Below are positions 7,902 to 29,200 of a stretch of 64,000 nt of DNA, one piece after another; position 1 is the first letter of the stretch, and every line of letters begins with the position of its first letter. The position numbers were made by a program, and so were the translations under genes. The notes beneath the pieces are model-generated. The model was not told the DNA's origin. It saw only the letters and a program-made list of their open reading frames with translations, and made no database searches. The stretch comes from Rhizodiscina lignyota (taxonomy: Eukaryota): positions 1,736,001-1,800,000 of the forward strand of contig ML978126.1 of NCBI GenBank assembly GCA_010015805.1, read 5' to 3'.

Positions 7902-8472
7902 GACGACTGAACTGAGAGATGTGCAATTCTTGAAGAGAGCAAAATAATGAAATGAAAAGGCGACTAAAGGATTCGCATTTGGATATCCGCCTTGAACATA
8001 TCTGCGAATGAGATGGTGTTGAAAGTGCCGGATTCTGCCGAGGAACCGATGCGGAGAAGACCTGGAGAGAGTTGTGGAGTCTCCACAAGTGCCATCCTTA
8101 CGAACGTCGAACCGAGATATAAATCTCTCGAGCGACAAGAGCTCGTCGGCACTGGCGAAAAGTGCAATACACTTGCACCCCGGCAACTGGCAACCATTCG
8201 CGGCTTCACAACCTCCCGCACGGCCCTTGGCTGGTGGATGCGAATTGTCATACCCTAGGCCTACACATCAAACCCCCGCTGTTAAGTGGACATTGTGGAT
8301 TGAATATCTTGCTCGAGTAATACTTGTAGGCTCCGACTTGGGAGAAGTCGTAACTATCGAGCACATTGAACCTCGTTAACTGGCAAATCTTGCTCGACCC
8401 AGCAGGCGGGCTTCACTCCGCGTTTTGGACCAAAACCATCAGAGATCTGTACTCCAAATAACAGACTGCAAA

Positions 8473-9378
8473 ATGACTACAGCATCGAGACCTCTGCCTT
8501 CTGGCATCTGGGACTGCCATTTCCATATCATGGATCCCGACACCTTTCCATATGGGGCGCATCGATCGTACACCCCGGCGGGCGCCACCATGGAGATGCT
8601 CAGGGAATCGACTCCTGCACAAAACTTCCTGCTAGTGCAAGCTTCAGTCGAAGATGGAGAGGCTGGAATTCTGCACCACCTCGAAAGAGCCAAGACTGAA
8701 TGGCCGAACAGCATCTGGCGCGCCGAGATTGAAGTGCCGAAAGATCGCGACTTCAGCAAAGAAGATCTGGAAAAGATGCATGAATTGGGCGTCAGAGTTG
8801 TCCGTCTGCACGGTGAGATTGGCAACACGGGCAGCGATCCCAACCAGTATATCAAGGAGGAATTCGTCAGACTCGCGAAAGTTTGTCGAGAGACAGGGTG
8901 GATTATATCGTCAATGTCTCCGCTTACCGCGTGGATCGAAGTCATCCCATGGCTTGTTACCGATCCTCAATTCATGGGCATCAGGTTCATCATCGAGCAC
9001 AGCGCTCGAGCAGATCCAAAGCGAGACGTCCATGACTACCCCGAGCTCGACAAGTTCCTCCAACTGGCACTGGCCAACAAAGACCGCATCTACGTGAAAG
9101 TATGTGGCATCAACCGCCGAGAACTTCCTAGCGATCCTCCCGGCAAGATGAAGGCGCTCCCTCAGGCCGATATCAAGATCGCCACCACACTTCCGGACAA
9201 TGTCATTTGGGGATCGGATTGGCCTCATACAAATAGCCATGGCCAGCCGAGGGAAGAGTGGACTCCAAACAAGGCAGTTGATCTCCACAATGAGCTGAAT
9301 TTGCTGCAGCAAGCATTGCCTGAGGATTTACTCGACAGGCTTCTGGTTGGCAACGCTGCGAAGCTATTCTCTTCTTAG
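8473..9378 (+). CDS. Amidohydrolase_2 family TIM-barrel hydrolase (LigI/lactonase-like)
   Basis: WDCHFH, LVQAS, IIEH and WGSDWPH motifs. ATG at 8473 (MTTAS). Confidence 0.85.
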   Translation: MTTASRPLPSGIWDCHFHIMDPDTFPYGAHRSYTPAGATMEMLRESTPAQNFLLVQASVEDGEAGILHHLERAKTEWPNSIWRAEIEVPKDRDFSKEDLEKMHELGVRVVRLHGEIGNTGSDPNQYIKEEFVRLAKVCRETGWIISSMSPLTAWIEVIPWLVTDPQFMGIRFIIEHSARADPKRDVHDYPELDKFLQLALANKDRIYVKVCGINRRELPSDPPGKMKALPQADIKIATTLPDNVIWGSDWPHTNSHGQPREEWTPNKAVDLHNELNLLQQALPEDLLDRLLVGNAAKLFSS

Positions 9379-9383
9379 TAGTC

Positions 9384-9645
9384 ATCACAAACAAGAATAT
9401 AAGCGAGTTTACAACCTTTTCCACGCTAAGTGCCAGCATCCCTCAAGAGGCTCCTACTCTACTATCTTTTCTTACCTGCCTTTAGATAGATTATACTTTA
9501 ATTTCCGTTACGTTCAACTTGCTGCTTGATATATAACCCGAGTATCATCTTGAATTAATATAGTATTCTCTAGATTGCATAGCTTCAACGAGCTTGACTT
9601 ATTTAATCGAAGAGCCTGGCTAGGCTCTGTGTCCAAATGACATCA
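9384..9645. repeat. Left copy of a long degenerate inverted repeat (partner 14560-14985), RIP-like
   Basis: 9384-9460 matches the reverse complement of about 14907-14983, 9455-9552 matches about 14770-14866, and 9562-9643 matches about 14561-14645. Differences are mostly CA>TA and TG>TA transitions. Confidence 0.9.
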
Positions 9646-10002
9646 CTAAAGTATTGTGCGAGGAAGCATAACTTCTAAGAGTGATTGCGAATATCTAGAC
9701 AGCATGGAGGAGTTGAAGCGCGAAGGAAGCCTAGTTGTGGCGGGTGCTCAACGCTAGCCAATATTTAGCCGATTGAGGCGCAGCCGGACAAATATGCAAA
9801 CTAGCCGTATTTAGCTATACAGTACAGTTGATATAACCTAATTGGTACCAGCTAAAAGTCCGTTAACGACCCTTTATTTCTTGAACTGCTTCGTGCAGTG
9901 CAACTTTCTCTCCAAATTTCTCTCACACACTGCCTCTGACCTACAACACAAGTGTCTTCTTGGTTCTGATAGCCGTAAAACGATTCTGAATTCGTCTGTA
10001 TC

Positions 10003-10637
10003 ATGACCGATTCTCGCAACGACGGTGGGGCACGTCGCCTCGCGGGGGTTGAAGGTACGATTGAATCCAATCAGTCAAGTATTGCTCATAACATTTCTCA
10101 GCAGCAATGGACCGGCCAGAATTGGCGGCGAGCGAGAAGGCATTGGATAAAGAAATCTATGATTTGAAGAAAATTTTATCAATGGCGGAAGCAGATCTCG
10201 ATGAAGAAGCGTTTGCCGAACGGACCAAAGAACTTGGCTCGCAATTCCTACAGAGAGACTTCTACCTTCATGATCTCCGTTCATCCAATGATCGCGAATT
10301 GCGTTTAATGAAAGATCGGGAGGTTCTCAAGCCGAACTTCAAATTACTCCTTGTAAGCTCGTCCGAATCTCCGTTTCATTGCGTTGGATATAAATGGCTG
10401 ATTGTTACGAAGGGTGTTCTGATTGAACACCATTCAACCGATGGCATAATGGCTGATGGTACCGACCTGAATGCCATTAGACTCCAGTTTGACACCAAGA
10501 TGAAACGATTGCAAAAGTTGGTGGATGCGGGCAAGCAGCAACATGCAGCATACGACCACAATGGTATCGAAGATGGTGAGCGCGAGTCTAACAGAAATGC
10601 GGTCATCGATCAGTCTGAATGGTCGCTGGAGGATTAA
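10003..10637 (+). CDS. Orphan helical/coiled-coil protein, 3 exons
   Basis: ATG 10003. Introns of about 10055-10101 (GTACGA...CAG) and 10353-10412 (GTAAGC...GCTGA...AAG) give a continuous frame of about 175 aa rich in E/K/L/R. Confidence 0.55.
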
Positions 10638-10819
10638 TTCTCGTCTTCAATGGCTCGTTCATTCGCGCAACTCTCAGAGTTTAAAGGCCAGCGCATAACA
10701 CCCGTGACGCTCCTTTTGCAACAGTGCGCTCCCCCACCTTTAAGTTCGACACAACCTCTATTGCAACACACTTCATCACACAAATTCATCATTCATCAAA
10801 CGTATATCCTTTAACGCGA

Positions 10820-11289
10820 ATGTCAATCGCAATGGCATCAGATATGCTTGCCAGACTTAATGAGAAGGAAGCGCAGGCGAAGGCATTACGAGCTCAAGTC
10901 AACGAAAATCTTTCTCCAAGACAGAGGCATATTATCAGGACTCGTATGCGAATTGAAACACTCGAAACCGTTATCGAAAGGGAACAATTCTATTCGCAAC
11001 TGTTCGAAGCGTATGGAGCATACCTCAAAAGTGAGCCACGAGACCTCGCCGGCGGGGGCCAATGGATACCGGAAGGTTTGTCAATGTATGCAATCATATT
11101 AGTGCAAAGCTAATGCGATTATGCAGGCGATCCTCTCGATGAGTACAACAAACTTAAAACCATCCTTACCTCACTCGATCCACGATACGTCAAAGAAGTT
11201 GAGAGTCGTCAAGCCAACGAACGCAAGCTGCTGGATCAGTTGCAGGAGGACAATAAAGCTGGCAACACCACGTCCACCAGCTCTGACTG
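10820..11289 (+). CDS. Orphan coiled-coil protein, 2 exons
   Basis: MSIAMASDMLARLNEKEAQAKALRAQ...QWIPE, then an intron (GTTTGT...GCTAAT...GCAG, about 11076-11126), then GDPLDEYNKLK...NTTSTSSD*. Confidence 0.55.
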
Positions 11290-11742
11290 ATAATACAAAG
11301 GCGCAATCAGGATGCTAGGCAAGGCATAGGAGGCTATGGTGTATGGTTGGGCTTCAATTGGCAGTACTGGAAATTACTTAGCCTCTCTGATTTGATTCAA
11401 TGGCTCTGAATCAATCACCAACCCCGATACGGCTTGAAGGCTCACATGAAATTGTTTGCATCACCGTTACATCAATCGTTATCATCAGAGATCGTGAAGT
11501 CGTGATGCATTTCAATGTTAATGCCATGTAAGAAGAGATTTACCACGCCCCATCGTATGATTATGTGCAATCAATGCCCAGCTCCGTTGGATTATCATGC
11601 AATTGAGCCCATTCAATGCATCATTCAATGCATCATTCAATTGACAACGCCGATCAGTTACCGAATCCATTCCGATTTTAGCCATTGCTGCCATTTCGCA
11701 CAATCGCATCCACTAACGCTATGCAGGACGCAGAATCAGATG

Positions 11743-12636
11743 TCATCCTTGACTAGAATAACAGGAAGCGTCCATGCCCAAAAACTCAAGGATGTCTGCG
11801 CTTGGATCTTCATCGGACTCGGTCAATTGCATGTTAGGATTCACCGATTGTGGCATCGGTTCGCCCAATGTTTCGAATCCAGGTAGACTTTCGATGCCCT
11901 CTGGTGCCTCAACGGGTTCGTTAGGGATGGTGTCAGGGTCTGTCCTAGGCTGCGTCGGTGTGGTGTTTGGTGCCTCGACCCTCGAATTCTTCTTGTCCAT
12001 CACCTCGAATGCCCCTTTCGCCCACACCATCCAGTCGTACATGTTGAATGGAGAACGACAGAGGAGACACGATCTTTCATTGACATCTTGGATGAGCGCT
12101 GCATTGGGCCTGACACCAATTTCCCTCTCAATGGCGATGCATACCCTGGGCACTTCAAAATGCTCAAGGCGGATCTGCTGCTTGAACTTTTCGAACGGCG
12201 TTAGACTGTTGGATGCCACATTCGTTGGTGGGTTATTGGAACCCTGCGTAGCATCATCTCCAGAGGGTCCAGGGATTGATTGATTGTTCATGTCAGTTGG
12301 CTTAACTGCTGCTTTCACACGTGTACCGCTGATTGGATTCGGTGTATGCGGATTGATTTGGTCAAACCAGATCTGCTTCAATTGATCCTTCTGGGCGTCG
12401 ACTTTCTTCGATTTGTCAATGGCATCGATTGGATCAATGAGGTTGAATGCAATGACAGTTGAAGGTTCCTCGCCCGGTTTCTTGCCGACTTGAATATAGA
12501 GTTTGGGACTGCCGCTCTGGTGCGCAACGTAACAGTACACTGTTTCACCAGCATACTGGTCAGCGTCTGCCTTCACCTTGCCCGCCACCATATATTTTTC
12601 AAACACCCTCTTAATACTTCCTGTGTCATTCGCCAT
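11743..12636 (-). CDS. Orphan protein B (copy 1; paralog of 22150-22947)
   Basis: 297-aa intronless ORF. It aligns with the 22150 ORF: RVFEKYMVAG/RAFNEYMIVG, IWFDQINPHTPNPI/LWLQHVDPHTANPI, IAIEREIGVRP/VAIEKIVGVKP, SPFNMYDWMVW/SPFDIPAWISW. Confidence 0.75.
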   Translation of the reverse strand: MANDTGSIKRVFEKYMVAGKVKADADQYAGETVYCYVAHQSGSPKLYIQVGKKPGEEPSTVIAFNLIDPIDAIDKSKKVDAQKDQLKQIWFDQINPHTPNPISGTRVKAAVKPTDMNNQSIPGPSGDDATQGSNNPPTNVASNSLTPFEKFKQQIRLEHFEVPRVCIAIEREIGVRPNAALIQDVNERSCLLCRSPFNMYDWMVWAKGAFEVMDKKNSRVEAPNTTPTQPRTDPDTIPNEPVEAPEGIESLPGFETLGEPMPQSVNPNMQLTESDEDPSADILEFLGMDASCYSSQG

Positions 12637-13140
12637 GGTGGATTGTCGAAAGAGAAAGGATGTACGGGTGTTGAAGATCTCCGACCTGTAAGAGAAGTAG
12701 CACAGTTAGCAGTGAATGAGAGTGATACAATAGGTTCCATACCGGTAGAGCTTCTTTCCAACAACAGCTCTAGATGAAAGTTATAGCCTCTGGGATATGA
12801 AGCCGTATTGGCAAGGGCGAAGGCGTATGAGTAAGAAATGTGATTATTAAGAGATGAAGGTACGTAGTTGTCTGTCAAGTCAAAGAATATATACTGTTGA
12901 GGAAGGTAAAGGCGAAGTGAGCTCAAGGCAGCAGTAAAGAACTGTTGCAGTATATATCGTACTTCGTCCCAATTGGAGAGTGAGGGTGGCTTGTCAAGTT
13001 GCCCGTGTATGATCTTGTGTGAGCAAGTGAAATATTCATATCTAGTCGGCGGCTAATATTTCAAAAATAGCCACTGCTCGGATCCACTACAATAGAAAGG
13101 AGGGAATTATCCACGAGTGAATTGAGTAAAGTGTACCGCA

Positions 13141-14046
13141 TCAATCAATACCCAGCCTACCAGCAATTTTCGCCCTTGCTTCGCCAATCGCATTACCGAC
13201 GGTGATGAACTTTTCATTCTGTTTCATCATTTGCAATGAGATCATTTTGGTGAGTGTTGTTCCCCCAACTGATTGGTCCATTGGGGATGGATCCTTAGGG
13301 TGAGGTTGCTTGCTGGCAATGACCGAATTGGCCAGAAAAGCTGCGTGAGCTCTTTTCTTTCCGGGGTTGTACGTGCTGAATTCAGCGCGCTCTGTGTCCA
13401 GGCAAAGGATCTGATCCATCTCAATTTTTTGAATGTGAGTCCTCATGATCCCATCCACAATGGTCAAAACACGAAGAAGCTCTCCTTCAAACTTGCGCTC
13501 AATTGCCTCTCTTGCTTCCATTGCCCGATGATAACCCAATATCTTATCACGATTGTAGGCTAGGTAGGTGGGCATCTCTTTGTCATTGATCGGAATGGCC
13601 TGGAGAGAGGCGAAGAATTGGTCGGGCTTCGCCTTCAAGAATCGGTTTATGTGAGGCCGGCAATGATTGAGCGGGACTAGCAAAACATGCAGCGCATGAT
13701 CCGCACAACTGTTATTGACTTGTTCTGCTGTGGTGCTAGGCTTGATTGATTGAAGTATCTCGTCGATGTCTGGCGGCGTCGGTATGTCGTCGAAATATCT
13801 TTCATTGGGATATCGCAGCAGAAGCATTCCGCTCGCCAATGAATCATCGACGTATTTGGCGGTATCCTCGAGGAGGGCCAATGAACCCTCAATCAACCAC
13901 ATTCCTTCCTCGAATCCATCCCTACACAACTTAGCGACATCGTGGTGGCCCCTTAAGTTAGGACTGCATAGCGTCAGTGAATGAGTGAAGCAATGTATAA
14001 CAGAAGCAACTTACCGGATTATGCTGTCTGTTTCGTTTGCGGACAT
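13141..14046 (-). CDS. Orphan protein A (copy 1; paralog of 20550-21508), 2 exons
   Basis: MSANETDSIIR, then a phase-2 intron 14014-13964, then PNLRGHHDVAKLCRDGFEE..., about 284 aa. It shares FEE, LAxGM, DDIPxP, FExxLxxVLT and DPSPMxxSV with copy 2. Confidence 0.75.
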
Positions 14047-14559
14047 TTAGAACGATGGATTTGGAGTTATAAGTGAGCCGCTTATCAGTGTGAAGGGTGA
14101 CCATGAGATAAGCATATATTAGTCGTGAAATTGGCCTGATGTTTTGTTTTGGTCATGATGGAGGACCGTATCTACTCTGTAAGGAACAAAAGTCCGAAAG
14201 TAGATTAGCCGGGGATTTCCGGAAGGCACTGTCCTAGTTGAACCGAGGTTTAGCCCGGGTTTAGCCCTTGCCTAAACCTCTTAAGTCGCTTCTACGTCGC
14301 GTTCTTTCCGAAACCTCTACAACTTTCAATATTACTGCCTAAAGCTGTCTAACTCTGCTTTATGCTCCGTTGAGGTTACCTCCTTACCCTTCCTCAACAG
14401 TATATATTCTTTGACTTGACAGACAACTACGTACATTCATCTCTCTACTGCAACAGTTTTTTACTGCTGCCTTGAGCTCACTTCGCCTTCGCCTTCCCTA
14501 CCGAAACTCAATCGATCATACTCTCTACCACCATGCCAGTAGGCCTTGGAAAGGCCCTT

Positions 14560-14985
14560 CATGTCATTTGGACACAGAGCCTAGCCAGGCTCTTCGATTA
14601 ATATAAGTCAAGCTCGTTAAAGCTGTGCAATCTAGAGAAATACTACCTAAAGTATATTGCATTAAACTTCCAGGTATGCTCGCGCTTACATCGAAGAGTA
14701 AATACCATATTTGCTTTGCTATTTCTGTTTTCCTTGGCTATACCAACTTCGAGCGAGTCCATTAAGTAAAGATGATGCTCGGGTTATATAGTCAAGCGGC
14801 AAGTTGAACACGACGGAATCGAAGTATGACCTATCTAAAGGTAAGCGAGAAAAGATAGTAGAGTAGCATCTAAGCAATATAAGGTATGATACTATACTGC
14901 CTGATCAGAGTAGGAGTCTCTTAAGGGATGTTAGTACTTAGCGTGGAAAAGGTTATAAACTCGCATATATTCTTATTTGCGATTG
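14560..14985. repeat. Right copy of the long degenerate inverted repeat (partner 9384-9645), RIP-like
   Basis: Reverse-complement identity to 9384-9645. It carries two extra blocks (about 14646-14768 and 14867-14906) absent from the left copy. TpA-rich. Confidence 0.9.
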
Positions 14986-15320
14986 ATCATATTAGTCAAT
15001 CCAAGGAGATCACCGTGTACTATCTCGTCGCAACAACTTCCATCGAAAACTATCGTGTCCAAGTCCAAGAGTGGAAACAACACATTGCGGATGGGGTTCA
15101 ACACCCTGAGCAACACACACTGCTAGCCGCATAGACGCGCGTGCACGCCCGCCCCAAGCGTAGATCTAAACGCAAGACCGCAAATGACGTTATCGATGAA
15201 ATGGATCATTGGACAGTCGAGGACCTGAAGCCGAAGGTATACATCCACATATTGTAATTAGCATCTGCATCCACACGTACTAACTCATGCCAAGCTTGCA
15301 AAAATTGGTCGCGCCATCTA
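14979..15320 (+). pseudogene. C-terminal remnant of a SNF2-family helicase (copy 1)
   Basis: HISQSKEITVYYLVATTSIENYRVQVQEWKQHIADGVQHP aligns with RIGQKDKVMIHYIIANESIELHRSCVQEMKTTLADGVMRP at 19.3 kb. In-frame TAG at about 15132. Same terminal intron position (HWTVEDLKPK|GT vs FWDVSTVKTR|GT). Confidence 0.75.
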
Positions 15321-16154
15321 ATTATGCGATCCCACGTTCAGAACGGTTCGTGTGGTCCTTCAATCCATTGAGCCATCACGTGCTGCACACAAATTCATTG
15401 AATACTCCCAATCTGAACCCTTCCCAATGCGTTCGGCGATTGATTGTCGTAGGAAGGCTAGCTCTAAAGTGGTGAATATTACGGATTCTGGGGATCAATG
15501 GCAAATGGGTTGGCATCTGGCTGGTGGCGTTCATAAATTTCATTTCTCAAGGTCTCCGGGAAGACGGGTGAAGCTATGAAAGATGATTGAGCTGACCGGG
15601 AAAGTTTTGGGCTAAAAGTATCTTCAGGTGTTTCACCTCGAAGTCATTGAGCTGGCGGCTGGCAATCATTGCTGTTTCCATTGATGGTGACAACAGGCAT
15701 GATATCAGAAGGAAGAGAAAATCGTCATTTTGAATATAGAGATCATTCTATGTCCAGGCCACCATTCAGTGCCTTTGTCATGTCAAAGACTTGCCATTCA
15801 ATTGTGAAACGAACGCAATATGCAATCTCCATTCGAGCTACCGTCATGCCCAATTCATTCCAATTCATCGAATCATCTGTGATACGTGCTCTCGCTGGTA
15901 TGATCACGATCATCGGTACCATTCGGAAGTGGACGAGAACCAAAGAGAAGAGAAGAAACTCCGTTTAACCCATGAAATGTTTTATTGGCCAACCCCAGTG
16001 TATCATTCTCCATATGATTGGCATCGAAACCAATCATTCTGCCACAAACGATGACCTACGGGTAGCTACAATCCATGGATTGCTTCGCTCTCGCAGGTAA
16101 CATTTAATGGCGAGGGCGCGGCCCAATACCCAACCAAGTAAAACGATGATGCCT

Positions 16155-16693
16155 TCATTCTGGTTTCACAGCAAATTTGCGACGCCTTTCCTCGCCCTCC
16201 TTGATTTTGGTAGCGGCGAGATCATCGATTTGCTTCAGAATCGTCCCTTCGTCGTCTGTCCCGCTCATCGCCTTCTCAGCATCCGCTTCAGCCACCATGT
16301 ACCATTTAACCTTGGCGGTGATTCGATCGCGCGCCTTTCGAAGCTGCTCGAGCCGCTCTTCGAGGTTGGTCTCGGCCTCGGTCTATCTGTCAGTCAGTCA
16401 TTGAGCCAATGATTTACGGCAACCCAAGTAAAGAATACACTCACAAGACTAGCGGTTAAGGTAGGCTCGTGCAGCACCCACGTTTTGTATCTTGCGCCAG
16501 CCTCGATAAGCTCCTCCTCAGTGATGAGTGGGTTGTTTTTGTCCAATGTGGCAATGTCTGCCCGGAGATGTGCAATGTCTTCATCCATCGCGGCGCACGC
16601 CGCTTTCTGATCAGCTTTCTGCTGTGCCAATGCGGCATTGAGCTTCACGATTCGTTTCGAAATTTTGGAGGTGGAGGAGTCTGTGCTCGACAT
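16155..16693 (-). CDS. Orphan coiled-coil protein, 2 exons (about 158 aa)
   Basis: Exon 16693-16445, intron GTGAGT...CTGAC...TAG, exon 16382-16155 (TEAETNLEERLEQLRKARDRI...KFAVKPE*). The frame is preserved. Confidence 0.65.
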
Positions 16694-16769
16694 GTTGGGG
16701 GTGGTGGCTTGGTTTATCGCGCTATTAAGGTTTTCTTTGGTTGAGGAAATAAGTTGAGAATGTTTAAAG

Positions 16770-16992
16770 AAAAAGGTTTATATTTACGAATTTCGTAAAA
16801 CGCCAAGACCTGCTGAGCGGCTGCCAAAGATCGTGGCGCCTGATTCTATTGACCATCAGCCACGTGACCCCTCTGTGAAAAAGACTATATTTACGAAAGT
16901 AAAATGCCACCTGCTGAGCGGCTGCCAAAGATCGTGGCGCCTGATTTCTATTGACCATCAGTCACGTGACGCCTCTGTGAATAAGGTATATA
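16770..16992. repeat. Two tandem ~105-bp near-identical repeats in a divergent intergenic region, each with CACGTG
   Basis: TATATTTACGAA...CCTGCTGAGCGGCTGCCAAAGATCGTGGCGCCTGATT(T)CTATTGACCATCAG(C/T)CACGTGAC..CTCTGTGAA occurs twice. Confidence 0.95.
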
Positions 16993-17162
16993 TTCAACAG
17001 CCTGAACTCTCTTTCTCTTGCTTACTTCTTCTTTCTTATAACTTGCGCACTACGATCAATGCGCGGATGATACCGGTACGCTCCCTATCTCTACTCACAT
17101 ATCGGAGCTAATGTTACCTCAGTTTAAAAAACAGAAGAGACCCCATATCCAGCAACGAAGCA

Positions 17163-18124
17163 ATGGCACCAAAGGCGAAGACCGAGGCGGAGAAGAAGGA
17201 AGCAAGGTCAGCGGCGGGGGAAAAAGCTACCGAGACAACAAAGAAGAATCGACAGGCGGCACAGATGGAGGATGAAGGAGAAGCTGATGACGTACACTCA
17301 AATTCAGATACGGATTCCTCTGATGTGCGTACAAAGAGCAGAGGCAAGAAGCGTACAATGACAGAGGAGGATGAAGACAATGGCGAGCCAAAGCAGACGA
17401 AGAAGCAGAAGAAGGAGAAGCATAACCGCAAGAGTGGAGCGGGTCGCAAGAAGCCTGAGACATCAGCGGCGGCGCAAGAGGACGAAGGCATACAAGAAGA
17501 AACAGCGAAGACTTCGAGTAAACGCCCCGTCCTCACCCACCTTAACGAGGCATCTCAATGAGGCAATGAACTCCTGCAAGGCGTGCTGACAATAGTACAG
17601 AGAGCGCCACCCAAACTGTCACCCCAACTAGCACGAAAACCCCCACGAGTTTAGTTGCAAAAGCGACGCAAAAGGTAGCTTCCTCGAAGACAACAACTCC
17701 AACGCCTGCGCCGTATACCGTCTTTGAGCTAGAGCTGAAGCACAAGATGCTCGAGTTGGAACTGGCAGCTGGAAAGAAGCTATTTGATGAAAAGATGGCG
17801 TTGTTGAAACAGGAGAAGGCTTGGTTGCAGAATCGCCTTGCCGAAAAGACTTTTCTTTACGAGATCAGCAAGATGGCTCAAGAAGAAAAGGATCATGGTG
17901 ATCCTCTCGTGACGCTTGTCGCCGAGTTGACTGCGGCAAGGCCGCAACGGGAACAGTCGGCTGCGGAAGAGTTGATAGGAACTGGCATGGGCGATCGCAT
18001 GGGCGCGAACAAAAATAGCGGAGCAACCCCCGTTGAAGAAGCCGGCGAGAAGGATGAGACATCTAGTGACGATGACGATGAAGAAATTGACATGGAGGCT
18101 CTGCATGCGGCTATGAGACAGTGA
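17163..18124 (+). CDS. Orphan K/E-rich low-complexity protein with C-terminal coiled coil (possible extra 5' exon at about 17068)
   Basis: Intron 17518-17600 (GTAAAC...GCTGAC...CAG) joins MAPKAKTEAEKK... to ...SATQTVTP...ELELKHKMLELELAAGKK...HAAMRQ*. Basic NLS-like clusters. Confidence 0.6.
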
Positions 18125-18540
18125 GCAAAAGGCGTTCTGGTATGGCGCAATGCCACATCGAGATGTGGTGGTGTCTGCGCTGGCAAGGGAGAAGGCAGAT
18201 AAATCGACCACACTTAAAGATTCTGGGCATAAAATTGGGGGTTGGGTTTCTAAATAATTCACGGTTGTTTCCATAAACTGCATTATCAAAGACAATCAAG
18301 ATACCTTGCATGAATTGCCTTTCATCCGTAACTTGGAAGAAGTTGAAGCCCTGAATGCAGTGCACAAGGGCCCGCTCGGATGAATCATTGTGTGCACGGA
18401 TCTTTGAGGGAATGTAGCAGAGTGTAATGTAAAATTCTTGGTTTAAAGTACATGAGAGAATTGGTTTCAAAGCTACTAGCGTGCCAAGGCCCACATCATT
18501 TCCGACAGCCCCGGTCAGATTTTGGTGAGTAACTAGGCAA

Positions 18541-18768
18541 GTGGCTAACAGAATAGTTGAGTCGAGGCTGTAATATATCGAACCACAAAGATATATATCC
18601 TCGTGAGTTAATATAGATTATATATCTTAAAGCTATACGATTTTAATAAATATACTTTAGTATTTATATAATCGAGGTTTCAGAGATACTCTCGTATATG
18701 CTGAAGAATAATACTTATTATTACTACAGCCGTTCCAGTCAATCGGGCTCAACTATTTTGTCCCCCTC
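18541..18768. mobile_element. MITE copy 1 (~225 bp, Tc1/mariner-type TIRs, degenerate)
   Basis: Ends GTGGCTAACAGAATAGTTGAG ... CTCAACTATTTTGTCCCCC. Colinear with 23281-23508. AT-rich interior. Confidence 0.75.
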
Positions 18769-18946
18769 GTGCTAGGTTTTCCCTATCTAACCTTTTCAAG
18801 TAAAACCGGATCCGCAACCTTGGCAATGTCCCCGCCACCGTTCAACCACAACTTAACGCCTGCACCCTTTCATCCAACCGACGCCTCCTCTCTGCTTGAC
18901 CAGCAATGATCCATTCGATGTCGTCTCCGCAGCTTCAATGGAACTA

Positions 18947-20337
18947 TCAGGAATGGGTACCCATAAGATTAGCCACGTCGGCCTCTTCGTCCTGCTCGGT
19001 GGCTGAGATGGTCAGCTAAAATTTGGTGAGTAACTGCTCCGCAGACTGTGAAGTTTCGAACTTACTCTGGTTTTCACAGTTGAAACGTCCCAGAATTTCA
19101 TCTGTTGAACAACATGTGCTTTCGTCTTAGGCTTCTTGCGCTTTCCCCATGGGACATACTGCCTCTTCTCGTTCGCCAGTTCAGCATGGTAGCTCGGACG
19201 CATCACCCCATCCGCCAAGGTCGTCTTCATTTCCTGGACACAAGAGCGATGGAGCTCGATAGACTCGTTTGCGATTATATAATGGATCATCACTTTGTCT
19301 TTCTGTCCGATTCGAACAATGCGATCCTTGCATTGCTGCTCGCAAGCAGGATTCCATCCCGCATTCAGGATAATAACAGTGTTCGCCAATTTGAAGATCG
19401 AGCCTGTCACAAGGTTGTCATCAGCTCATTGCCTCAATGGCGTTACCAAACCAGTCCTTACCCATCTGAACCGACTTTCATGCTCGCCAACAGGACCTCC
19501 GGGCCTTATTGTTCTTGGAAGCTCTCCAAAGCCTTCACGCGCTTCTTGTCGCGGCTAGTACCGTCATATCGCGCATGCGTGATCTTGTTTGCTTTCAGTG
19601 CCGCTTCAACGAGGTCGAGAGCATCGGTCCATTCGCAGAAGATGACTACCTTCGAGCGCTTGGAAGTCTCCGATGAGCCATTGATGATGTACAGACATTG
19701 GTCCACTTTTGGGGAATGCCAGTTGGTAGCGACGTAGTTCTGCCATTCCTGATTGCTCTTAAAGGTCCTTCGTCTTGGGAGAACTTAACCTTTGTTGTAA
19801 GGTGCTTGTACCATTGGTCCAAAATACCCAGGGTGCAAACGACGAGCGTATTCGCTGGCGGGCTGAGCGGACGGCTGACGAGCAATGCCAATGCTTGGAT
19901 GATCTTTCCAAGACCCATATCATCTGCCTGGATTCCACCTTTTAATTCAGAATCCTCCATCCTTATCATCTGACCGACTCCTTCGAGCTGATGTGGAAAT
20001 AGCTGGAACATTTGACCAGTGATCGAATCTGGTATTCTCATTCGCTCCGGCGTAGACGGTAAAGCATGGACCGATGTGGTAAGGTAATCAGGCGCCTTCA
20101 ACCCTCGTTGAAGCAATGCTAACAAGCGCTCAGCGACGCCGCTATCTCCATCTTGATCTTTTGCTCCGAGGGCAGGTACGACGAGTTGTTGTGGTTAGGA
20201 TCAGGACTCCTGTATAACCAAGTGCCCTCGTCGTCGTTAGAAAACGCCTGACGGAGATGAGACACCACAAGTTCCATTGCTGCATTGCGCGGCCGTTCTG
20301 GATTCGTCCACTTTCCGGACTTTGGAAGACGAATCAT
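18947..20337 (-). pseudogene. RAD5/RAD16-like SNF2 helicase pseudogene (copy 2)
   Basis: LFPHQLEGV, GGIQADDMGLGK, TLVVC...QW, KVVIFCEWT, RYDG and WNPACEQQCKDRIVRIGQ are present. The motif II/III region is missing. Frameshifts at about 20120, 19700 and 19390, and a stop at 19506. Confidence 0.85.
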
Positions 20338-20549
20338 GGTGGAAGTATTGTTTTGAATAGTATAAGTGAGAAAAGGTGAAGAAGTTCAATCGCATTGGAA
20401 CCCTAACACTATATCCTACCGACCGGAACAGAGGTTGATCCGGAACCTCTTGGCAAATATTCTTTATTTCATGGAGACAGAGCTTGCCGAATACATTTGA
20501 ATATGCTCACGCTCTCCCTTTCGAATTTTAGATCTTGAACTACCCAAAC

Positions 20550-21508
20550 ATGGATTCCAACATTAGAGGGGATACGTACATCGCAGGACCGGATGATTTG
20601 TATGTATCGTCGATGCTGCGATACATAGTTTCAAGACCTTGGTCGGCCACTAACTCAACCACTTCAGTCCAACCCCCGATAAGATTCGAAATATCATCCT
20701 TGGATACCGTGGACAATTTGAAGAATCCGAACGCTCGATCAAGACAATTCTAGAAGTGCTGCAGCGTGCTGCCCAATGGGTCAACAACACATTAGCCCGC
20801 GGCATGGTCGCCCTCGAACATGGCGATCAGCGATTTTAAGACGACATTCCTGCCCCACTGTCCCTATATGAGCTCATCGACGCAGTCCGCCCTGCTGCTA
20901 TTGATTTAGACATCAATCCATTATTAGCTTCTAGAGCACTCTACGACCTACTGGGTGCCATCGACAAAGCGCGCCCTTTCCTGAACCAAACCCTCGCTTC
21001 TGAACCTACATCATATAATAATAGTCTTCAACAATTCGCTATCGATAGCGACATCCCGATCGCGAAGAAGAAACATATGACAACGCTTCTAAATTACAAC
21101 CATGCAATGCACCAGCGACGCATGATCCAGGTTCGGTTTGAGGACAAACTGCGCTCAGTGCTGACAAGCGTTGTCACGGCACTCCAGCCATACCTGGAAC
21201 AAGTCCAATCTGGAAGACAGGACTGTTCAGAGCACCAAGTGTCCGCATACTGTGGAGCCACAGAAGCAAAGCAGCTGGAGATCATTCACGAACTAGGCAA
21301 ATCTCTCGTGGTGTTGCAGCAACCTGATGGAGACCCATCGCCGATGGAGCGATCGGTCTTTGCGGTTGGTCTGCGGCGGATTATGCGACTCAGAATGTGG
21401 GATCTTGACGAGATATTCTTGAAGAACAGAGCCGAATTGGACGACTGTCTTGTTGCATTGAACCAACTAAGCCCACCAGCGCAAGCAGCCGGCACAGAAG
21501 TTGAGTGA
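20550..21508 (+). pseudogene. Orphan protein A copy 2 with one premature stop
   Basis: ATG 20550, phase-2 intron 20600-20667. The frame is open except for TAA 20837-20839 in QRF*DDIPAP (paralog ERYFDDIPTP). It continues through DPSPMERSV to TGA 21508. Confidence 0.75.
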
Positions 21509-22149
21509 AGGGCTAGCTCTCGCCTATCGTCATTATCAAATTCGTTCCACCAACCAAGTGAAGCGTTGCGCTTGTGTAGACCGGATACGGAACTCAAATA
21601 TCTTCACTTACTTGTTGCGCTGCTTCGAAACAATCTATACATCTTTTGATCACGTGATCCGCACTGTAGCAGCAGTACTTAATATCTTCTTTCGGCCCTC
21701 CTCCTTCTCTTTTATTTCTCTCTCTCAGAAACATACTGGGCCGTACTGCAAAGGCTACAAATTGCTATTCCCTCTATGATTACCAATATCGCAATAGGAC
21801 CTTTGGGCACCCCAGGCAACAGCAATTACACGTCTTGACGAATGAATCACTCCTCTACTAAGCTCCAACCAGCAGGACGCATTTGTTTCACATTGGAAGG
21901 GAGTGGGCTGACCCCGTTTCACTTCAAGTAAGTTAACCTTGGCAAAGCCCGTGTTCTAAGCTTATATATCTGACAACTTAGACTCTTCCACTTCTCATGC
22001 TTCATTGACGACGGTGCCGACCTGCACAGCCTCACTCCTCCATTTCACTACCGAAGCCCGATATTGCAGAACGGACTCCAGGCTTACAAGCTTTCATTGC
22101 TTCATTACCAACTATACACCCCCGAATCATCACTATAGCTTCCATTAAG

Positions 22150-22947
22150 ATGGCTGCCGCCGCAAATCAGCCTGTACAACGCGCATTCAACGAATACATG
22201 ATCGTCGGTCATGATAACCAGGACATCAGTCGCATGGTCTATTTTAAGATTGATAGACGCGGGGAGACTGGCTACAAGACTGCTTTCCGAGTGATCGAGC
22301 CGCCGAAGACCTCACCACATGCTGTAATCTCGTACAAGAAGGTTCAATTCTTGCTGCAGTATGCAAATATTGCAGCATCAAAAAGGAATGAAAAGCTGTC
22401 GGAGCTATGGCTACAACATGTCGATCCGCATACTGCCAATCCAATAGCACAGCATATAACGTTTGCAACCAACTCACAGAGTACGTCGACCACTGAAAAG
22501 CTTGCCGCATACGAACGATTCAGGCGCGCCATTGCAGTGGAACCCGACGAACTGCCAATGGTTGCGGTGGCCATCGAGAAAATTGTCGGTGTGAAGCCTG
22601 AGACAACGTTGCTTAAACAGATTCACGAGGAGTCTCGTCTCATCCGATGCTCGCCGTTCGACATCCCTGCGTGGATCAGTTGGCACATTCTCTACGAAGA
22701 CGAAATTCGGGCGAATTTGAGCAAAAAGGTGCTACCAACGCCAATGCCAATGCCGACGCCAACGCCAACTCCAAAGAAAAGGGAGTTAGATGCTGCTACG
22801 GATGCTGCTACAGATGCTGCTACGAAGAAAAGGAAGCCGGATCCTGCTACGGATGCTGCTGCAAAGGAAAGGAAGCCGGATCGTGCTATGGATGCTGCTA
22901 CGATGGAAAGGATGCGGGATGCTGCGTTCATCTCTGCGCTCATGTGA
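22150..22947 (+). CDS. Orphan protein B copy 2, with C-terminal PT and DAAT minisatellite repeats
   Basis: 265-aa ORF homologous to 11743-12636. GATGCTGC repeats at 22789-22925. Confidence 0.75.
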   Translation: MAAAANQPVQRAFNEYMIVGHDNQDISRMVYFKIDRRGETGYKTAFRVIEPPKTSPHAVISYKKVQFLLQYANIAASKRNEKLSELWLQHVDPHTANPIAQHITFATNSQSTSTTEKLAAYERFRRAIAVEPDELPMVAVAIEKIVGVKPETTLLKQIHEESRLIRCSPFDIPAWISWHILYEDEIRANLSKKVLPTPMPMPTPTPTPKKRELDAATDAATDAATKKRKPDPATDAAAKERKPDRAMDAATMERMRDAAFISALM

Positions 22948-23280
22948 TTGACTTAGGAGCTTGTGGCCCGGTGGGGGTAATTTACATTGCACTATCCTTC
23001 TGATAGTTTCATATATAATGAAGAGTTGGGGTAATTTCGAGATGACTTAATGATGGCAGAAAAAAAGTGGTTACGGAGTTCGGGGAAACAGTTTGCTTGG
23101 GCTGGGGCGCAATTGCAATGCCTCATTTCCTACCTCTTGCGCACAATCGCTGGAATCATCCCCCTCTACAAATCAAAACGTTGATGCTGCATTGCCCAGT
23201 TCAGGTACCAATCAATATCGAATTACTGATAACTGACTCGCATTGTTTGTGTATGTTGGTCCATACGGATACGTACTCAA

Positions 23281-23508
23281 GTGGGTGACAAAATAGTTGA
23301 GTCGTGGCTGCAATATACAGAACTACGAGGATGTATATCCTCGATAGTTAATATAAGTTATACACGGTAAAACTGCGTGTTTTAGATAAACGAACTCTAG
23401 TATATAATTTATCGACCTTTTAGAGATGCTCTCGCTAGCGTTGAAGAGGAAACCTCGCTTTTGCTGAATACGTTTAAACTTTGCAGGATTCAACTATTTT
23501 GTCACCCC
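23281..23508. mobile_element. MITE copy 2 (~225 bp) with perfect 18-bp TIRs
   Basis: GGGTGACAAAATAGTTGA (23283-23300) and TCAACTATTTTGTCACCC (23490-23507). Non-coding interior homologous to 18541-18768. Confidence 0.85.
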
Positions 23509-24055
23509 CGCGGTGCTCTATATGTGACTTTGCGCCGAAATGCGCCGAAACGCACCGAAAGTTCAGCCGCCTTTAAACAGCGTGAAGGAAAAGTCAAGAC
23601 CAATGAACTAAAACCAGTACAGAGAGAGGGGGCATTTGCCGCAAGTCATTTTAACTGGCTTTGTGTAGTAAGTCGACCAAACCGAAGCTCATCGTAGTTC
23701 CATATAGAGTAGATGTAGCTGCCCATCTTTGTTGTAGCGCTATGAACTGGAAAAGAGAGATCATCGATACACCACCAACTGTATTCTTAGCGCGAGCGAA
23801 AAAGTGATGTGGTGCGTACTAAAGGAAGACATGAGATCGTCCCGCGCAAAAGCATTGAGTACGCGAAATCACCGCGCGGGGGAGAGGGGGGAGGTGTTGG
23901 GTTGCTAATGGGCAGTATTTCGTAGGACCGATAAGACAGTGTCACATCTTAGTGCTTATAATATACAATTGAAATGCACATTTAAGAATGTTCAATCTTC
24001 TAAATTTAGCCCAAAAAAAAAAAGGAAGAAATAAAAAAGAGGACACAAAAAAAAA

Positions 24056-24155
24056 AAAAAACTGGAGCGTCTCTTTGTTTGCATGTGTCATCCTTAGTGC
24101 AGGGGCCATGCTAATCTTCTCTGTATCGTTTCAAATTGACCAAATGCCCGAAGGC
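24056..24155 (-). ncRNA. U6: U6 spliceosomal snRNA
   Basis: The minus strand reads GCCTTCGGGCATTTGGTCAATTTGAAACGATACAGAGAAGATTAGCATGGCCCCTGCACTAAGGATGACAC...CCAGTTTTT. It has the 5' stem-loop, ACAGAGA box, AGC triad and poly-T Pol III terminator, with TATTTAA about 30 nt upstream. Confidence 0.97.
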
Positions 24156-24764
24156 GTTGATCGAAGGTTGCAACATCAATTAAATAGGCAACAAAATTAA
24201 TTAGCACCACCACCACGATTCTTTCCGCCGGTCTACCCCATCTACCAGACTCAGAAAAATATGCCCAACCAAACCCAAGTATCCAAAATATTTATTTCGC
24301 GTTGCCTAGGGGGCAAGATCGTGATTTGATTATCGCCGTTGGCGTTTGCGACCGCGGGTGGGCAGTTCGGGACACCCTCTGCAGACGAATTGCGAGATCG
24401 AAGGGCTAGTATCCTCCTAAAACCCACGAACAATCGAATCGAATATCTGGAAAAATTTAGGTATATTCTGGCAGTAATTTCACCCGTAATTTAGGCCTCA
24501 TTGGCCCCCTAGAAAGCGAGCGTTTTCGATGGAGAATGGGACGATGAGCGGAGGAGGGACAGAAATTCGTCCCACGCACAAATGCTCTTTATCCGAGGGG
24601 TACCTCTAGACTATTGGCTCCCACGGCTGGGTAAGCGTGCTGAGAAACTGGCTAAGACGGGATACATGTGATCTCATTCCGTAGTTTCACAGAAATCGAG
24701 CGGCCTTCTCGCCCTCTTGGGCTGCTATTGCACTTCCGTCCCGCAAGCAAACCTCTTCAATCCA

Positions 24765-25980
24765 CCTCAACTTAGGGATTCAGGATGTAAATAACTTCTA
24801 CGACTACGCATTTCATGTATCTCCTCGCAGTCCGTCAAGGTTCATCTCTTGCAAGGCGTGCAGAGTATTTTGTCCTTTGAACTGTGCTACAGTAACCTGA
24901 TCAAAGCAGACAGACGCGTCCTCGATGCTTCTTGACCTTCGTCTTTGCCGCAGATTTAGTCCCTTCATCCGTTTATTGCACAGACTTTCCGCTGACCATG
25001 TAGCTCCAATCTTTATTAAGGTTTAATAAACTTCTTCTTCTCTAGAGCTGTCCGTAGTCACGCATTTGCTCAACACCGAACCTTCCTCTGGCCTCTTCAA
25101 CTTAGGAACTCAAGACGGAAAGAACTTCTATGACTACCCATTTCTTATACCTCCTCCTAGCCGTGGAAGGCTTATCTCTTACGAGTCTTGCAGAGCATAT
25201 TACTATTTGAACTGTGCTGCTCTAACGCAACCAATACGGATAGAAGCCTCGTCGATACTCCTTCACCTTCCTCATTACCGCAGATATGCTTCTTGCTTGG
25301 CAAACGATCTCTGCGAGTGCTTTGCCAGATGTCGTCTCCCATGAGTAGCCACAGGCATGAGGACGGCTCCTCTTCGACCCATGCATCATATACCTTGTCG
25401 GACTGCGGTGCAAGCGATTTTATCTCGAAGAACAGCTCGGTAAGATCCTCTGCGCTGCCATCCCAGATCATAGCCAGAGATACCACCGCCCCGGCAATGG
25501 CAGGCATCGGATGTATGGTGACGGACCTTGCTTGTCCCTCTGGATCGCCGTAGGCAGCATCAACCAGGGCTTGCACGTCTTTCGCGAAGCCACCAAACAT
25601 TTTAGCCACGCCCGCCCTGACGTTCTCCATTGTGTTCATTGCGAGGCAAGCTTTCCAGGTAGGCCGGACGTCATCTTAAGGTAGAAAAAGGGGCTCCAGC
25701 AGCTTTCGATGCGAGCTTAGCGAAGTTGAAGCGGGATCGATTTTGTATTGCACGGGCTTTTCGCTGACTGTACAGTTCCTATCTTCTTTGAGTTTATTAT
25801 AGCCTAGAACTCTTCCGCGATCATGCATTTGCTCGAGATCGAAGCCTCCTCGATGCTCCTTAACTTTCTTCTTTACCGCAGATATGCTCATTTCGTCCCT
25901 TTGTTGCACAACCCTTTCATTAAGTACATAATATCGATCTTCTTCAGTTCCCTGAGCTCATTCTCTTCTAGAGCGGTTCT
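24765..25980. repeat. Three diverged direct copies of a ~200-280-bp unit (about 24765-25050, 25095-25320, 25835-25980)
   Basis: Shared blocks CAACTTAGG..TCA, AACTTCTAYGACTAC, TTTGAACTGTGCT, TCGATRCT..T..CYTTC.TC.TT.CCGCAGAT and CTAGAGC. Confidence 0.75.
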
Positions 25981-26252
25981 ACAGTCTTACGTTGGCCCAA
26001 GATCGGAGCCTCCTCCACCCTTACTAACTTGTATACTTACTTCCAATATCCTCTCACGCATTCACTACTTGCACAAAGCTCCGCATGTGGTACACCATCT
26101 ATATGTCATTCACCGAATGATATTCATGAATCATAAGTACAGTATGAGTGGCATCTCATCTATTATCATCAGAGCAAGCCTAGCCACCCATGTCATTTTG
26201 TCGTAAACTCCGCCTGACCGATGCAAATGCTTATTTAATGCTACTGTCCTCA

Positions 26253-29200
26253 TCACAGCTTCTCGTTCTCCCCCTCCGTGACGTCCACCTCCGCCAAATC
26301 GGCAAAGTCCTCGCGCCGAATGCCGCTCCTCTCACACATCCCCCTGAAGATACCACCCGCCTCGTACAAGCGGCCGGGCGTGTCCAGCTCGGCGATCCTG
26401 CCGGCATCCATCACCAGAATACGATCATATCCGATGATCGTCTTGAGTCTGTGTGCGATGCACAGCAGCGTCTTGCCCTTGAAGCCCGCCTGCATCGTCT
26501 TCTGGATCTTCTGATCCGTCTCCATGTCGACGCTGGAGGTCGCTTCGTCGCACACGATGATCTGGCTCCCTCTGACCAGTGCTCTTGCGAGCGCCATTAG
26601 TTGTCGTTGCCCGAGGGAGAAGTTGAGGCCTTCTTCTTCGACGATGCCGTCAAGATGCACGCGTTGGTTCTTGTCGGTCATGTTTGCATCGGGAGCGACG
26701 AGATCGGCCTGGCGTAGCGCGCTCCAGAGTTCAAGATCGGTATGTTCGCCGAAGGGATCGAGGTTTGAGCGGACGGTGCCACGGAAGAGGGTAGGATCTT
26801 GCGGGATGATTGCGAGTCTGCTTCTCAGATCGAGGAGGCCAACTGTGCCAATATCGACGCCGTCGATAGTAATTGTACCACCACAAATGTCCACCAGCCT
26901 GAATAGCGTGCTCATGATACTGGATTTACCCGCGCCAGTTCGTCCGACAACTCCAATGCGCTCTCCGGCCTTCACATGCACGCTCAATCCTTGAAGCACG
27001 AGCGGTAGGCCTGGACGGTACCGCATCTCGACGTTGTCGAAGACGATTTCTCCGTGCTCTGGCCAGCTCGGTCGGACTTGGGCGAGATGTAGCGGCGGCT
27101 CTTCGTCAAGCTGCGTGCCATAATAGTGGATACGTTCTGTGGCATTCATATGGTTCTCGACTTCAGCAAGCTGACGAACAGTGAATTGAATCATCTGCAC
27201 GATAGAGAGAATGTAACTGAGGACAAGACCGCCGATGGATGGCGAGATTGAGAAACGTGAAGTTACGACCAGGATGCCGGTGACGAAAACAAGCATGTTG
27301 CCGATGAGGTCCAAACGTGTGGAAAGCCAGCGTTGATTCGCATATGTGAGGAAGTATGCGCCATCCATACTGTCGATCGCATCGTAGATAGTCCGAGAAA
27401 AGCGATCCTGCAGACCGTACGCGCGAATGGTGGAAACACCAGAGACAGCTTCGCTGAACTTTGCGAAAACGACGCTACGCAACAGCGATTCGTGTCGCTT
27501 AATTTCACGTGCAGAGGCACGATAATAAGCCGCAGCTGCCACGAATAGGATAGCGAGGGGGCCGAGAGCGACAGCAAAGTAGTGGAAGTAGACGATGATG
27601 AGGATGAAGACAGACACGATCATTCCGAGCGTCATAAAGTACATGCGCATCGAGTCAGTCAAATTGTTGTCCATGGTGTCGATATCCTTCGAGAAGCGGT
27701 TTGTGATTCGGCCGAGAGGTGTTGTGTCGAAGAACGACATTGGCGCTCTGAGGACTCGAGTGATGGATTGCTGAAGCATGGTCTTGCTGGCTTGAGTGCC
27801 AAAGTAGGAAAGCGCGAGGGAGAAACCAAAGAGCATCAGAGCCTGGGAAGCACCCAAAGCAGCATATACTCCAATATATGTACCCTGTGAAAATCCCCAT
27901 TTGTTTGATGTCCACCAGGAGAGCCACAGACTGGTCACAATATTCGATCCTTGAGATCCCACGAGGAAGAAGAATATCAATGGAGCAACGAATATAGATC
28001 CGGATGCTCTGACATACGATATCCACACGGACCAGGAAACACTCTTTGTTGCTCTTTCTTCAGCTTGCATCAAAGCTGCGGCCTTCTTTTGCATCTTCTT
28101 CTTCTTGCTGTCCTTCTTCTCTTCTTCTATCTCATCTTCATTGACGTCGTCCTCCTTCTCTTTCTCCTCCTCAACCGCAGTCGTTGCCATGAGATGTTTG
28201 AAATCCTCGCTTCCAGTCATGAGGTTGTCGAACGTGTCAATCGCTTCGATATGTCCATTGTTCATCCAGATGATGCGATCGCATCTGTTCAAAACCCAAA
28301 GCTGGTGAGTGGCGAGAATTCTGCATTTGTTCTTCAGCAGTCCACAAATCGCATTGTCCATGATGTGCCTTCCAACATGAGCATCGACGGCGGAGAGCGG
28401 GTCGTCGAGTAGAACAATATCCGAGTTGAAGTAGATAGCTCTTGCGATATTCAGGCGTTGCTTCTGGCCACCAGAGACAGTAATACCCCTTTCACCAATC
28501 TCAGTTTGATCGCCAGCCGGGAGCATATCGAAATCTGGGCGGAGCGCGCAAGCATTCACGACCGTGTCGTACCAGTCCCTCTTGAACTCGGTTCCGAACA
28601 AAATGTTCTCCTTGACTGTCGCATTCTGGATCCAAGCATACTGTGGACAGAAAGCTCTCGAGGCACCCAGCGTAACCTTGCCTTCAGTCCTCCGCATATC
28701 TCCAGCAAGTGCTGCCAAAAGCGAGCTCTTTCCAGAACCGACGGTTCCAATGACAGCAATAAGCTCGTTGCGTCCAACAGAAAAGTTAATATCCCGAATC
28801 CTAAACGGCTCTTCCTCCGTAAGTGTACTCGAACTATCAACCTCCTGTGCTACACCCTTGTCTGCATCCTTCTTTCGCTGTTTCTCTGCCTTTTCTTCAT
28901 CTTTGACCTGTTTCTTCGTCTTCAATGCATTGTTCGGATTTTGATCCGGATCTTGAGTCGGCGACCGTTCCCAAGTAAATTCGCCATCGACAACAGTTAC
29001 AGCCTGCTTGGCATTGTAATCCCATTCGCAGTCATCACCAGCTTCCTCGGCAAGAAGAAACTCCTGGATTCGATTGATGGAAGAGTATGCGTCAATGGCT
29101 TGACCAATGACCAGGGGCAGGAAGTTAAGCGGCAGGCGCAGAGAATTGAACAATGCTAGCGAGGAGAAGACTGGTGCCGGATCGAGGACGTGCTGCGATA

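Follow-up and report, generated by a model that had tools for sequence, protein, structure and literature searches.

A mirrored SNF2–A–B block in Rhizodiscina lignyota, the probable relic of an ancient local inverted duplication

What leaves two diverged copies of a three-gene block standing side by side in mirror image on a fungal contig: a mobile cassette, a late inversion, or a local duplication in slow decay? The question is raised by a 64,000-nucleotide stretch of Rhizodiscina lignyota DNA (contig ML978126.1, positions 1,736,001 to 1,800,000; hereafter the window), which comes from a filamentous ascomycete placed in the Dothideomycetes, Aulographales. Between positions 11743 and 22947 of the window, remnants of an SNF2-type gene and two orphan genes, here called A and B, face the counterparts SNF2', A' and B'. 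Analysis of the sequence favors one answer as probable, namely that a lineage-restricted set of three genes was duplicated locally in inverted (palindromic) orientation long ago and that what remains is a decaying relic. The two copies are composed of the following features.

11743–12636, minus strand: gene B, a single coding exon of 297 amino acids, defined by its open reading frame (ORF) and paralogy to B'
12686–12742, minus strand: intron of 57 nucleotides in the 5' untranslated region of B, after public model P0001
13141–14046, minus strand: gene A, 284 amino acids, with exon 1 at 14015–14046, a phase-2 intron of 51 nucleotides at 13964–14014 and exon 2 at 13141–13963
14982–15237, plus strand: stub of SNF2 copy 1, 85 C-terminal codons from the middle of motif VI to the terminal intron donor
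18853–20337, minus strand: SNF2', broken, with the Pfam domains SNF2-rel_dom and Helicase_C
19003–19065, minus strand: terminal intron of SNF2', with a GT donor
20550–21508, plus strand: gene A', with exon 1 at 20550–20599, a phase-2 intron of 68 nucleotides at 20600–20667 and exon 2 at 20668–21508
21928–21981, plus strand: putative intron in the 5' untranslated region of B', from a reading of the sequence only
22150–22947, plus strand: gene B', 265 amino acids, defined by its ORF and paralogy to B

Homology between the two copies extends to all three positions of the block. B and B' share 26% identity over 207 amino acids (BLASTP, expectation value (E) 6e-20), A and A' share 28% identity over 196 amino acids (BLASTP, E 5e-26; tblastn, E 3e-32 across 273 amino acids), and the SNF2 stub and the tail of SNF2' form a gap-free alignment with 36% identity (E 2e-16). 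By these alignments, A/A' and B/B' are true paralog pairs, with similarity far beyond chance. The three pairs, their order B A SNF2 / SNF2' A' B' and their matching introns together give the composition of a local inverted segmental duplication. The ancestral block would have carried an SNF2-type ATPase gene divergent from A, with B following A, and would have been copied as a mirror image. Since both copies have the same order, SNF2 diverging from A and B lying beyond A, the palindrome is probably primary. An earlier note on this DNA, made from the letters alone, had described both the mirrored order and orientation, B(−) A(−) ... A'(+) B'(+), and the strong divergence of the encoded proteins; coordinates and BLASTP bear out the former, and the identities of 26% (B/B') and 28% (A/A') the latter.

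The internal structure of the genes is likewise shared, with residue blocks and intron positions conserved between the copies. In both A and A', a short first exon ends in phase 2, a feature already proposed in the earlier note and now upheld by the sequence reading and by the agreeing N-termini of the public models P0001 and P0002. Gene A' is interrupted by an in-frame TAA at 20837–20839, which is flanked on both sides by stretches aligning with A; at this point the alignment reads ...RYF-DDIPTP in A and ...QRF*DDIPAP in A'. The two B proteins differ at the C-terminus, where the tail of B' consists of 3.3 copies of a 39-nucleotide tandem repeat (22799–22925) encoding D-A-A-T/K-K-R-K-P-D-like units, that is, KKRKPD-like motifs, whereas the tail of B is non-repetitive and Pro/Glu-rich. 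The KKRK repeats of B' resemble a nuclear localization signal and suggest a nuclear protein.

The age of the duplication can be read from the same pairs. When half 1 is reverse-complemented and compared with half 2 by blastn at word size 7, the sole match is 25 nucleotides long (E 0.21). Identical residues are encoded by identical codons at 18 of 70 positions in A/A' and 20 of 62 in B/B', against 22.5 and 23.0, respectively, expected from codon usage, and four-fold third positions agree at 7 of 35 sites in A/A' and 9 of 32 in B/B'. With synonymous sites saturated and DNA similarity between the halves absent, the duplication is therefore ancient, which supports the earlier note in its view that this is no recent local inversion. 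A recent duplication combined with fast protein evolution was considered and rejected, as synonymous sites are saturated. Repeat-induced point mutation (RIP) was also rejected as the cause of divergence and stops: all 32 of the 2-kb bins show TpA/ApT of 0.40–0.79 and (CpA+TpG)/(ApC+GpT) of 1.14–1.60, judged by the thresholds for calling RIP.

The SNF2 genes show how far the decay has gone; both copies are inactivated. In SNF2', the start of the N-lobe lies at 19646–20194 and Helicase_C is present in pieces at 19506–19784 and 19012–19425, with Pfam matches to SNF2-rel_dom profile positions 1–74 of 290 (E 9.7e-11) and Helicase_C positions 3–63 of 110 (E 3.4e-6). Helicase_C comes straight after the start of the N-lobe, the DExx-box region and motifs II–III being absent; because the ORFs of the two domains overlap, there is no room for motifs II–III or for a RING. 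The P-loop reads MGLGKII, placing Ile where the Walker A motif, GxGK[T/S], has Thr or Ser. Further along, an in-frame TAA at 19506–19508 falls inside Helicase_C, before motif V, and splits the domain in two, while the ATG-led ORF upstream (20337–20119) lies in a different frame. The stub of copy 1 lacks an N-lobe and carries an in-frame TAG at 15133–15135; its codon-frame score of −0.29 per codon, with coding periodicity lost, compares with 0.10–0.22 for the SNF2' pieces.

Despite this erosion, the two remnants retain a specific relationship. The terminal intron sits at a homologous place in both: in SNF2' its donor follows KTR, at 19065, and in the stub it follows KPK, at 15238. The earlier statement that the two SNF2 genes have a terminal intron in common therefore stands for what is left of them. 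Because the aligned tail is non-catalytic and the GT donor occupies the same place, the stub and SNF2' are specific paralogs and not merely two SNF2 genes. The claim of two SNF2 genes does not hold as stated: both copies have left homologous remnants, but the plus-strand copy survives only as the 85-codon stub and SNF2' is broken. Relaxed tblastn with all SNF2' pieces over 14050–15700, 9300–10100 and 23000–26300 did not find the rest of copy 1, returning the C-terminal match only; other matches, at E 0.03–0.04 in two overlapping frames at 10003–10089, were taken as chance. With their tails still at 36% identity despite the saturated synonymous sites of the neighboring genes, both SNF2 genes would have been kept under selection long after the duplication and would have decayed later, independently of each other.

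The earlier naming of these genes as RAD5/RAD16-like is not sustained. Members of the RAD5/RAD16 subfamily have a RING finger inserted between the two helicase lobes; Pfam finds no RING family in any SNF2' ORF, and the region that would hold it is deleted. The PDB and database matches of SNF2' are generic SNF2 proteins (best E 3.4e-6, 1.1e-5 and 2.5e-7). A comparison of the N-terminal piece with longer proteins retained 34 matches out of 5351 candidates (lowest E 2.5e-7), all of them generic SNF2 and many bacterial; RAD5 appears among the weak PDB matches at E 2.7e-4. SNF2' thus resembles RAD5/RAD16-type ATPases in its SNF2-related N-lobe start and Helicase_C lobe, but it differs from them in lacking the DExx-box/RING part, in its generic or bacterial top matches and in being non-functional, and the comparison neither shows descent from them nor rules against it.

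The A and B genes have fared differently from the SNF2 copies, and here a more radical form of decay has to be weighed, in which A and B would have no function as genes and their open frames would be leftovers in an interval of lineage-specific DNA that is decaying throughout. This is highly improbable. Codon-frame scores are 0.24 for B, 0.22 for A and 0.21 for B', and the four A and B genes together span 0.18–0.24, equal to the 0.17–0.20 of three housekeeping control genes, whereas the stub as a true relic falls to −0.29. The frames of A, B and B' remain open over 265–297 codons despite saturated synonymous sites, A' bears a single stop, and the conservation of intron positions and residue blocks likewise speaks against mere leftovers. 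Open frames and control-like scores therefore argue for long-term purifying selection on the A and B genes. What the non-functional reading can draw on is the absence of homologs or of any family for the two proteins, the very low mean predicted local distance difference test (pLDDT) of their AlphaFold2 models on two-row alignments (41.4 for A, 42.0 for B), the stops in A' and in both SNF2 copies, and a GC content below that of the flanks.

If A and B are genes, their products belong to no described family, as the earlier note had supposed. Even at E ≤ 1, Pfam returns no match for A, B or B'; for A' it gives only sub-threshold matches to HTH_62 (0.042) and ACP53EA (0.049), both far below cut-off. 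PDB profile searches with A and B gave nothing below E 0.28. In the ESM Atlas, B has no usable match, and the best score for A, 0.81 to helical tethering proteins, is a level reached by shuffled proteins one-third of the time. The structural check proposed at the outset, AlphaFold followed by Foldseek for a nuclease, recombinase or toxin fold, yielded low-confidence models (pLDDT 41–42) and, for the B model, 0 PDB matches in Foldseek at E ≤ 0.001. The models give only a hint that A may be all-helical and that B may combine a small beta/alpha N-terminal part with a disordered tail; both are probably small intracellular proteins, as far as prediction goes. From linkage alone it may be guessed, weakly, that A and B once worked with their SNF2 partner on chromatin or DNA and persist without it.

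How copy 1 lost most of its SNF2 gene is recorded in a patch of duplicated sequence between A and the stub.

9384–9643, no strand: left arm of the inverted repeat, in the 3' flank of the amidohydrolase gene, starting 6 nucleotides past the stop
14358–14983, no strand: patch of inverted local duplications, from blastn self-comparison (inverted repeats I1–I8)

Specifically, blastn self-comparison shows that 14358–14497 is an inverted copy of 12850–12952, the region upstream of B, at 88–94% identity, and that 14561–14983 is an inverted copy of 9384–9643 at 84–95% identity, with two insertions. The patch fills the place expected for the 5' part of SNF2 copy 1. Since SNF2 homology starts just where the repeat arm stops (14982 and 14983, respectively), the event that formed the patch also truncated the gene. 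Copy 1 would probably have been cut by a template switch during replication or repair, or by an inversion-type rearrangement, that pasted in two nearby segments.

This geometry admits a second account of the mirror itself. A later inversion of 9644–14560, carrying B and A, could have made the 260–420-bp end duplications and the palindrome in one step and truncated SNF2 copy 1, so that the mirror orientation would be secondary. The arms of 84–95% identity do flank exactly this segment, the right arm abuts the SNF2 stub, and inversions flanked by such inverted duplications are documented: the relevant passages of Ranz et al. 2007 (PMC1885836) describe inverted duplications of a few hundred base pairs, at about 88% identity and drawn from unique nearby sequence, as by-products of staggered-break inversions. 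The cases in those passages resemble the present one in the size of the inverted duplications (260–420 bp, 84–95% identical here), their unique nearby source and a gene-truncating breakpoint, and also with respect to the mirrored paralog pairs found here, some of whose duplicates are pseudogenised. They differ in that the main duplication here is far older, as the synonymous saturation indicates, is fungal, and has a patch drawn from two sources. An inversion would, however, have to re-create the architecture of copy 2 by chance, which is unlikely, and the second inverted copy in the patch, from 12850–12952, fits template switching better. A secondary origin of the mirror is accordingly unlikely. 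With regard to the patch, a template-switching repair product would look similar to an inversion by-product; it may be either of the two, and either arm may be the original.

A profile of A and A' was run with HMMER over 1,835,955,588 representative proteins at a cut-off of E ≤ 0.001 and returned four matches: P0001, P0002, P0003 and P0004. P0001 is the window's own A, fused to B by the annotator as a 600-residue model whose annotated intron takes out the stop of A. P0002 corresponds to A' of the window and ends at its natural stop without fusion to B'; its intron around the TAA costs it 41 codons that have counterparts in A, the DDIPxP motif among them, and is read as an annotation device, not a real intron. 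P0003, from another contig of Rhizodiscina lignyota, is a 1145-residue Ser-rich membrane-type model whose C-terminus is A'-like and aligns to window positions 20978–21322 with apparent frame disruptions; this stretch is probably, on its alignment, a pseudogene fragment wrongly joined as terminal exons. P0004, a highly repetitive protein matched over 26 positions, was judged spurious. The three real clusters have a single member each, and source names give the three proteins identical or related to window translations as hypothetical proteins of Rhizodiscina lignyota.

Outside this species, the profile search found no real A relative among those representative proteins, and of the A homologs sought at further loci or in further genomes it shows the one degraded A'-like fragment on one other contig of the same species. 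Word-based protein searches gave 0 of 799 candidates for A and 0 of 345 for B, but they are insensitive: the former missed the window's own A' model and the latter would have missed any B' model. Non-exhaustive pattern searches returned 0 of 281 metagenome-contig and 0 of 118 viral-contig matches for B, and 0 of 58 viral-contig matches for A.

These results bear on the reading put forward in the earlier note, that SNF2-A-B is a conserved mobile or selfish cassette (a non-canonical transposon, the cargo of a giant element or a drive locus) of which two diverged members landed next to each other. In its favor, the block was copied as a unit with its architecture kept, an A'-like fragment exists on another contig of the species, and the family is an orphan one that diverges fast and includes several dead copies. 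Repeats are present as well, inverted ones on either side of A-B in copy 1 and a direct pair enclosing copy 2.

18538–18694 and 23278–23434, plus strand: AT-rich direct repeat, 75% identity over 157 nucleotides, with about 230 nucleotides alignable

Neither set of repeats defines a common element end. The direct repeat of copy 2, with no further copy within the window, shows no relation to those around copy 1; the latter flank just A-B, exclude the SNF2 stub and derive from local unique sequence; no common terminal inverted repeats, such as would mark a DNA transposon, bound both copies. Mobility enzymes were sought by Pfam scans of 57 ORFs in the window (22 + 35, the 35 being picked from the 56 ORFs of at least 150 amino acids together with a few shorter ones, with overlapping antisense frames left out), and these ORFs gave no match to a transposase, a tyrosine recombinase (DUF3435), a reverse transcriptase or a nuclease. 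The block encodes a single enzyme, and both its copies are dead; A has no relative beyond the species among the representative proteins and B none in the non-exhaustive searches, and a single inverted duplication is more parsimonious than two independent insertions in exact mirror order. With no mobility enzyme among the scanned ORFs, no shared termini in the window and SNF2 dead on both sides, the cassette is not borne out and is quite unlikely.

Known fungal systems underline the same differences. Starships are giant cargo-carrying elements of Pezizomycotina, with a captain, a DUF3435 tyrosine recombinase, at one end. The present interval is like them in being a lineage-specific, lower-GC stretch of orphan genes in a filamentous ascomycete, but it differs in that the ORFs scanned in the 64-kb window include no captain and no element boundaries are seen there. 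Spok and wtf are fast-evolving multi-copy selfish gene families of fungi. They share with A and B the pattern of lineage-restricted, strongly diverged paralogs, several dead and one at another locus; they differ in that the present genes have no sequence or domain similarity to them and no sign of drive, toxin or antidote, with two copies and one fragment known here. A literature search linking SNF2 with Starship or captain turned up a single review, and one on SNF2, lineage-specific fungal genes, pseudogenes and inverted duplication found nothing on such a block; the SNF2 passages of PMC10799480 are not relevant to it.

Three observations do weigh against the local-duplication reading. The 157-nucleotide direct repeat at 75% identity brackets SNF2'-A'-B' and could mark a unit. 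The A'-like fragment in P0003 is about 90% identical over its first ~52 amino acids and 52% identical over 124, and its presence on a second contig therefore means that at least part of the block was copied elsewhere recently. Finally, if the duplication is as old as saturation implies, it is a little surprising that no other annotated fungus has A, which would need a long unsampled lineage or losses. A more far-reaching version takes A-B, originally with SNF2, as an undescribed lineage-restricted selfish or mobile unit that multiplied inside this fungus, represented by two ancient copies and a recent A'-derived copy, with the helicase no longer needed; this version is very unlikely. Were it true, A and B would do the unit's work, perhaps as a drive or addiction pair.

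Taken as the relic of a local inverted duplication, the locus matters little as it stands: it is a well-preserved example of an old palindrome among orphan genes of a fungus. Decay has gone in steps, in that both helicase copies are dead, one paralog bears a nonsense codon and three frames remain open, and a breakpoint is patched by inverted copies of nearby sequence. The locus is also of some use to annotation: in the public models, A and B are joined as one protein, the stop of A' is spliced out and the A'-like fragment is appended to an unrelated gene. If further copies with defined ends existed genome-wide, A and B would be the core of an undescribed selfish unit, and the importance would be greater.

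The mirrored block lies inside a 17-kb interval (~9.4–26.2 kb) flanked by an amidohydrolase gene and an ABC-transporter gene. Features of the flanks and of the palindrome centre are as follows.

8380–9378: amidohydrolase ORF, Amidohydro_2 (Pfam)
15240–18850: palindrome centre, small orphan ORFs without mutual paralogy (no cross-match by tblastn)
16155–16777, minus strand: orphan ORF, coiled-coil-like, no significant Pfam family
17112–18124, plus strand: orphan ORF, Lys/Glu-rich, no significant Pfam family
26253–30791: ABC transporter, ORF identified by Pfam

The SNF2' relic apart, all ORFs of this interval are without a Pfam family. GC content within it is 0.44–0.50 per 2-kb bin, mostly 0.47–0.48, and further right about 0.50–0.56. 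At the palindrome centre, a 101-nucleotide tandem duplication of 87–100% identity (16771–16985) lies between two divergent orphan ORFs. About 1.1 kb downstream of B', still within the orphan-gene interval, a full-length U6 spliceosomal small nuclear RNA gene occupies 24056–24155 on the minus strand (Rfam RF00026, 88.1 bits, E 3.8e-21, model positions 1–105 of 105); no transfer RNA gene was found. Toward the right end of the interval, 24749–25312 and 25836–25910 hold three diverged copies of a 75–207-nucleotide unit at 60–77% identity, two of them 330 nucleotides apart, which overlap a coding-like ORF at 25172–25675 (minus strand) without a Pfam family.

Elsewhere, the window's ORFs include a sugar transporter, GH130, a 2OG-Fe(II) oxygenase, an APH-type kinase, a class-III aminotransferase, PNO1 and MDM31/32, among others. 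At 33187–37873 on the plus strand, two overlapping long ORFs of 811 and 796 amino acids have no Pfam family above cut-off; their one match, to an aspartyl protease (E 2.5e-4), scores 22.1 bits where 24.3 are required. The two ORFs may represent one large orphan or retroelement-derived gene.

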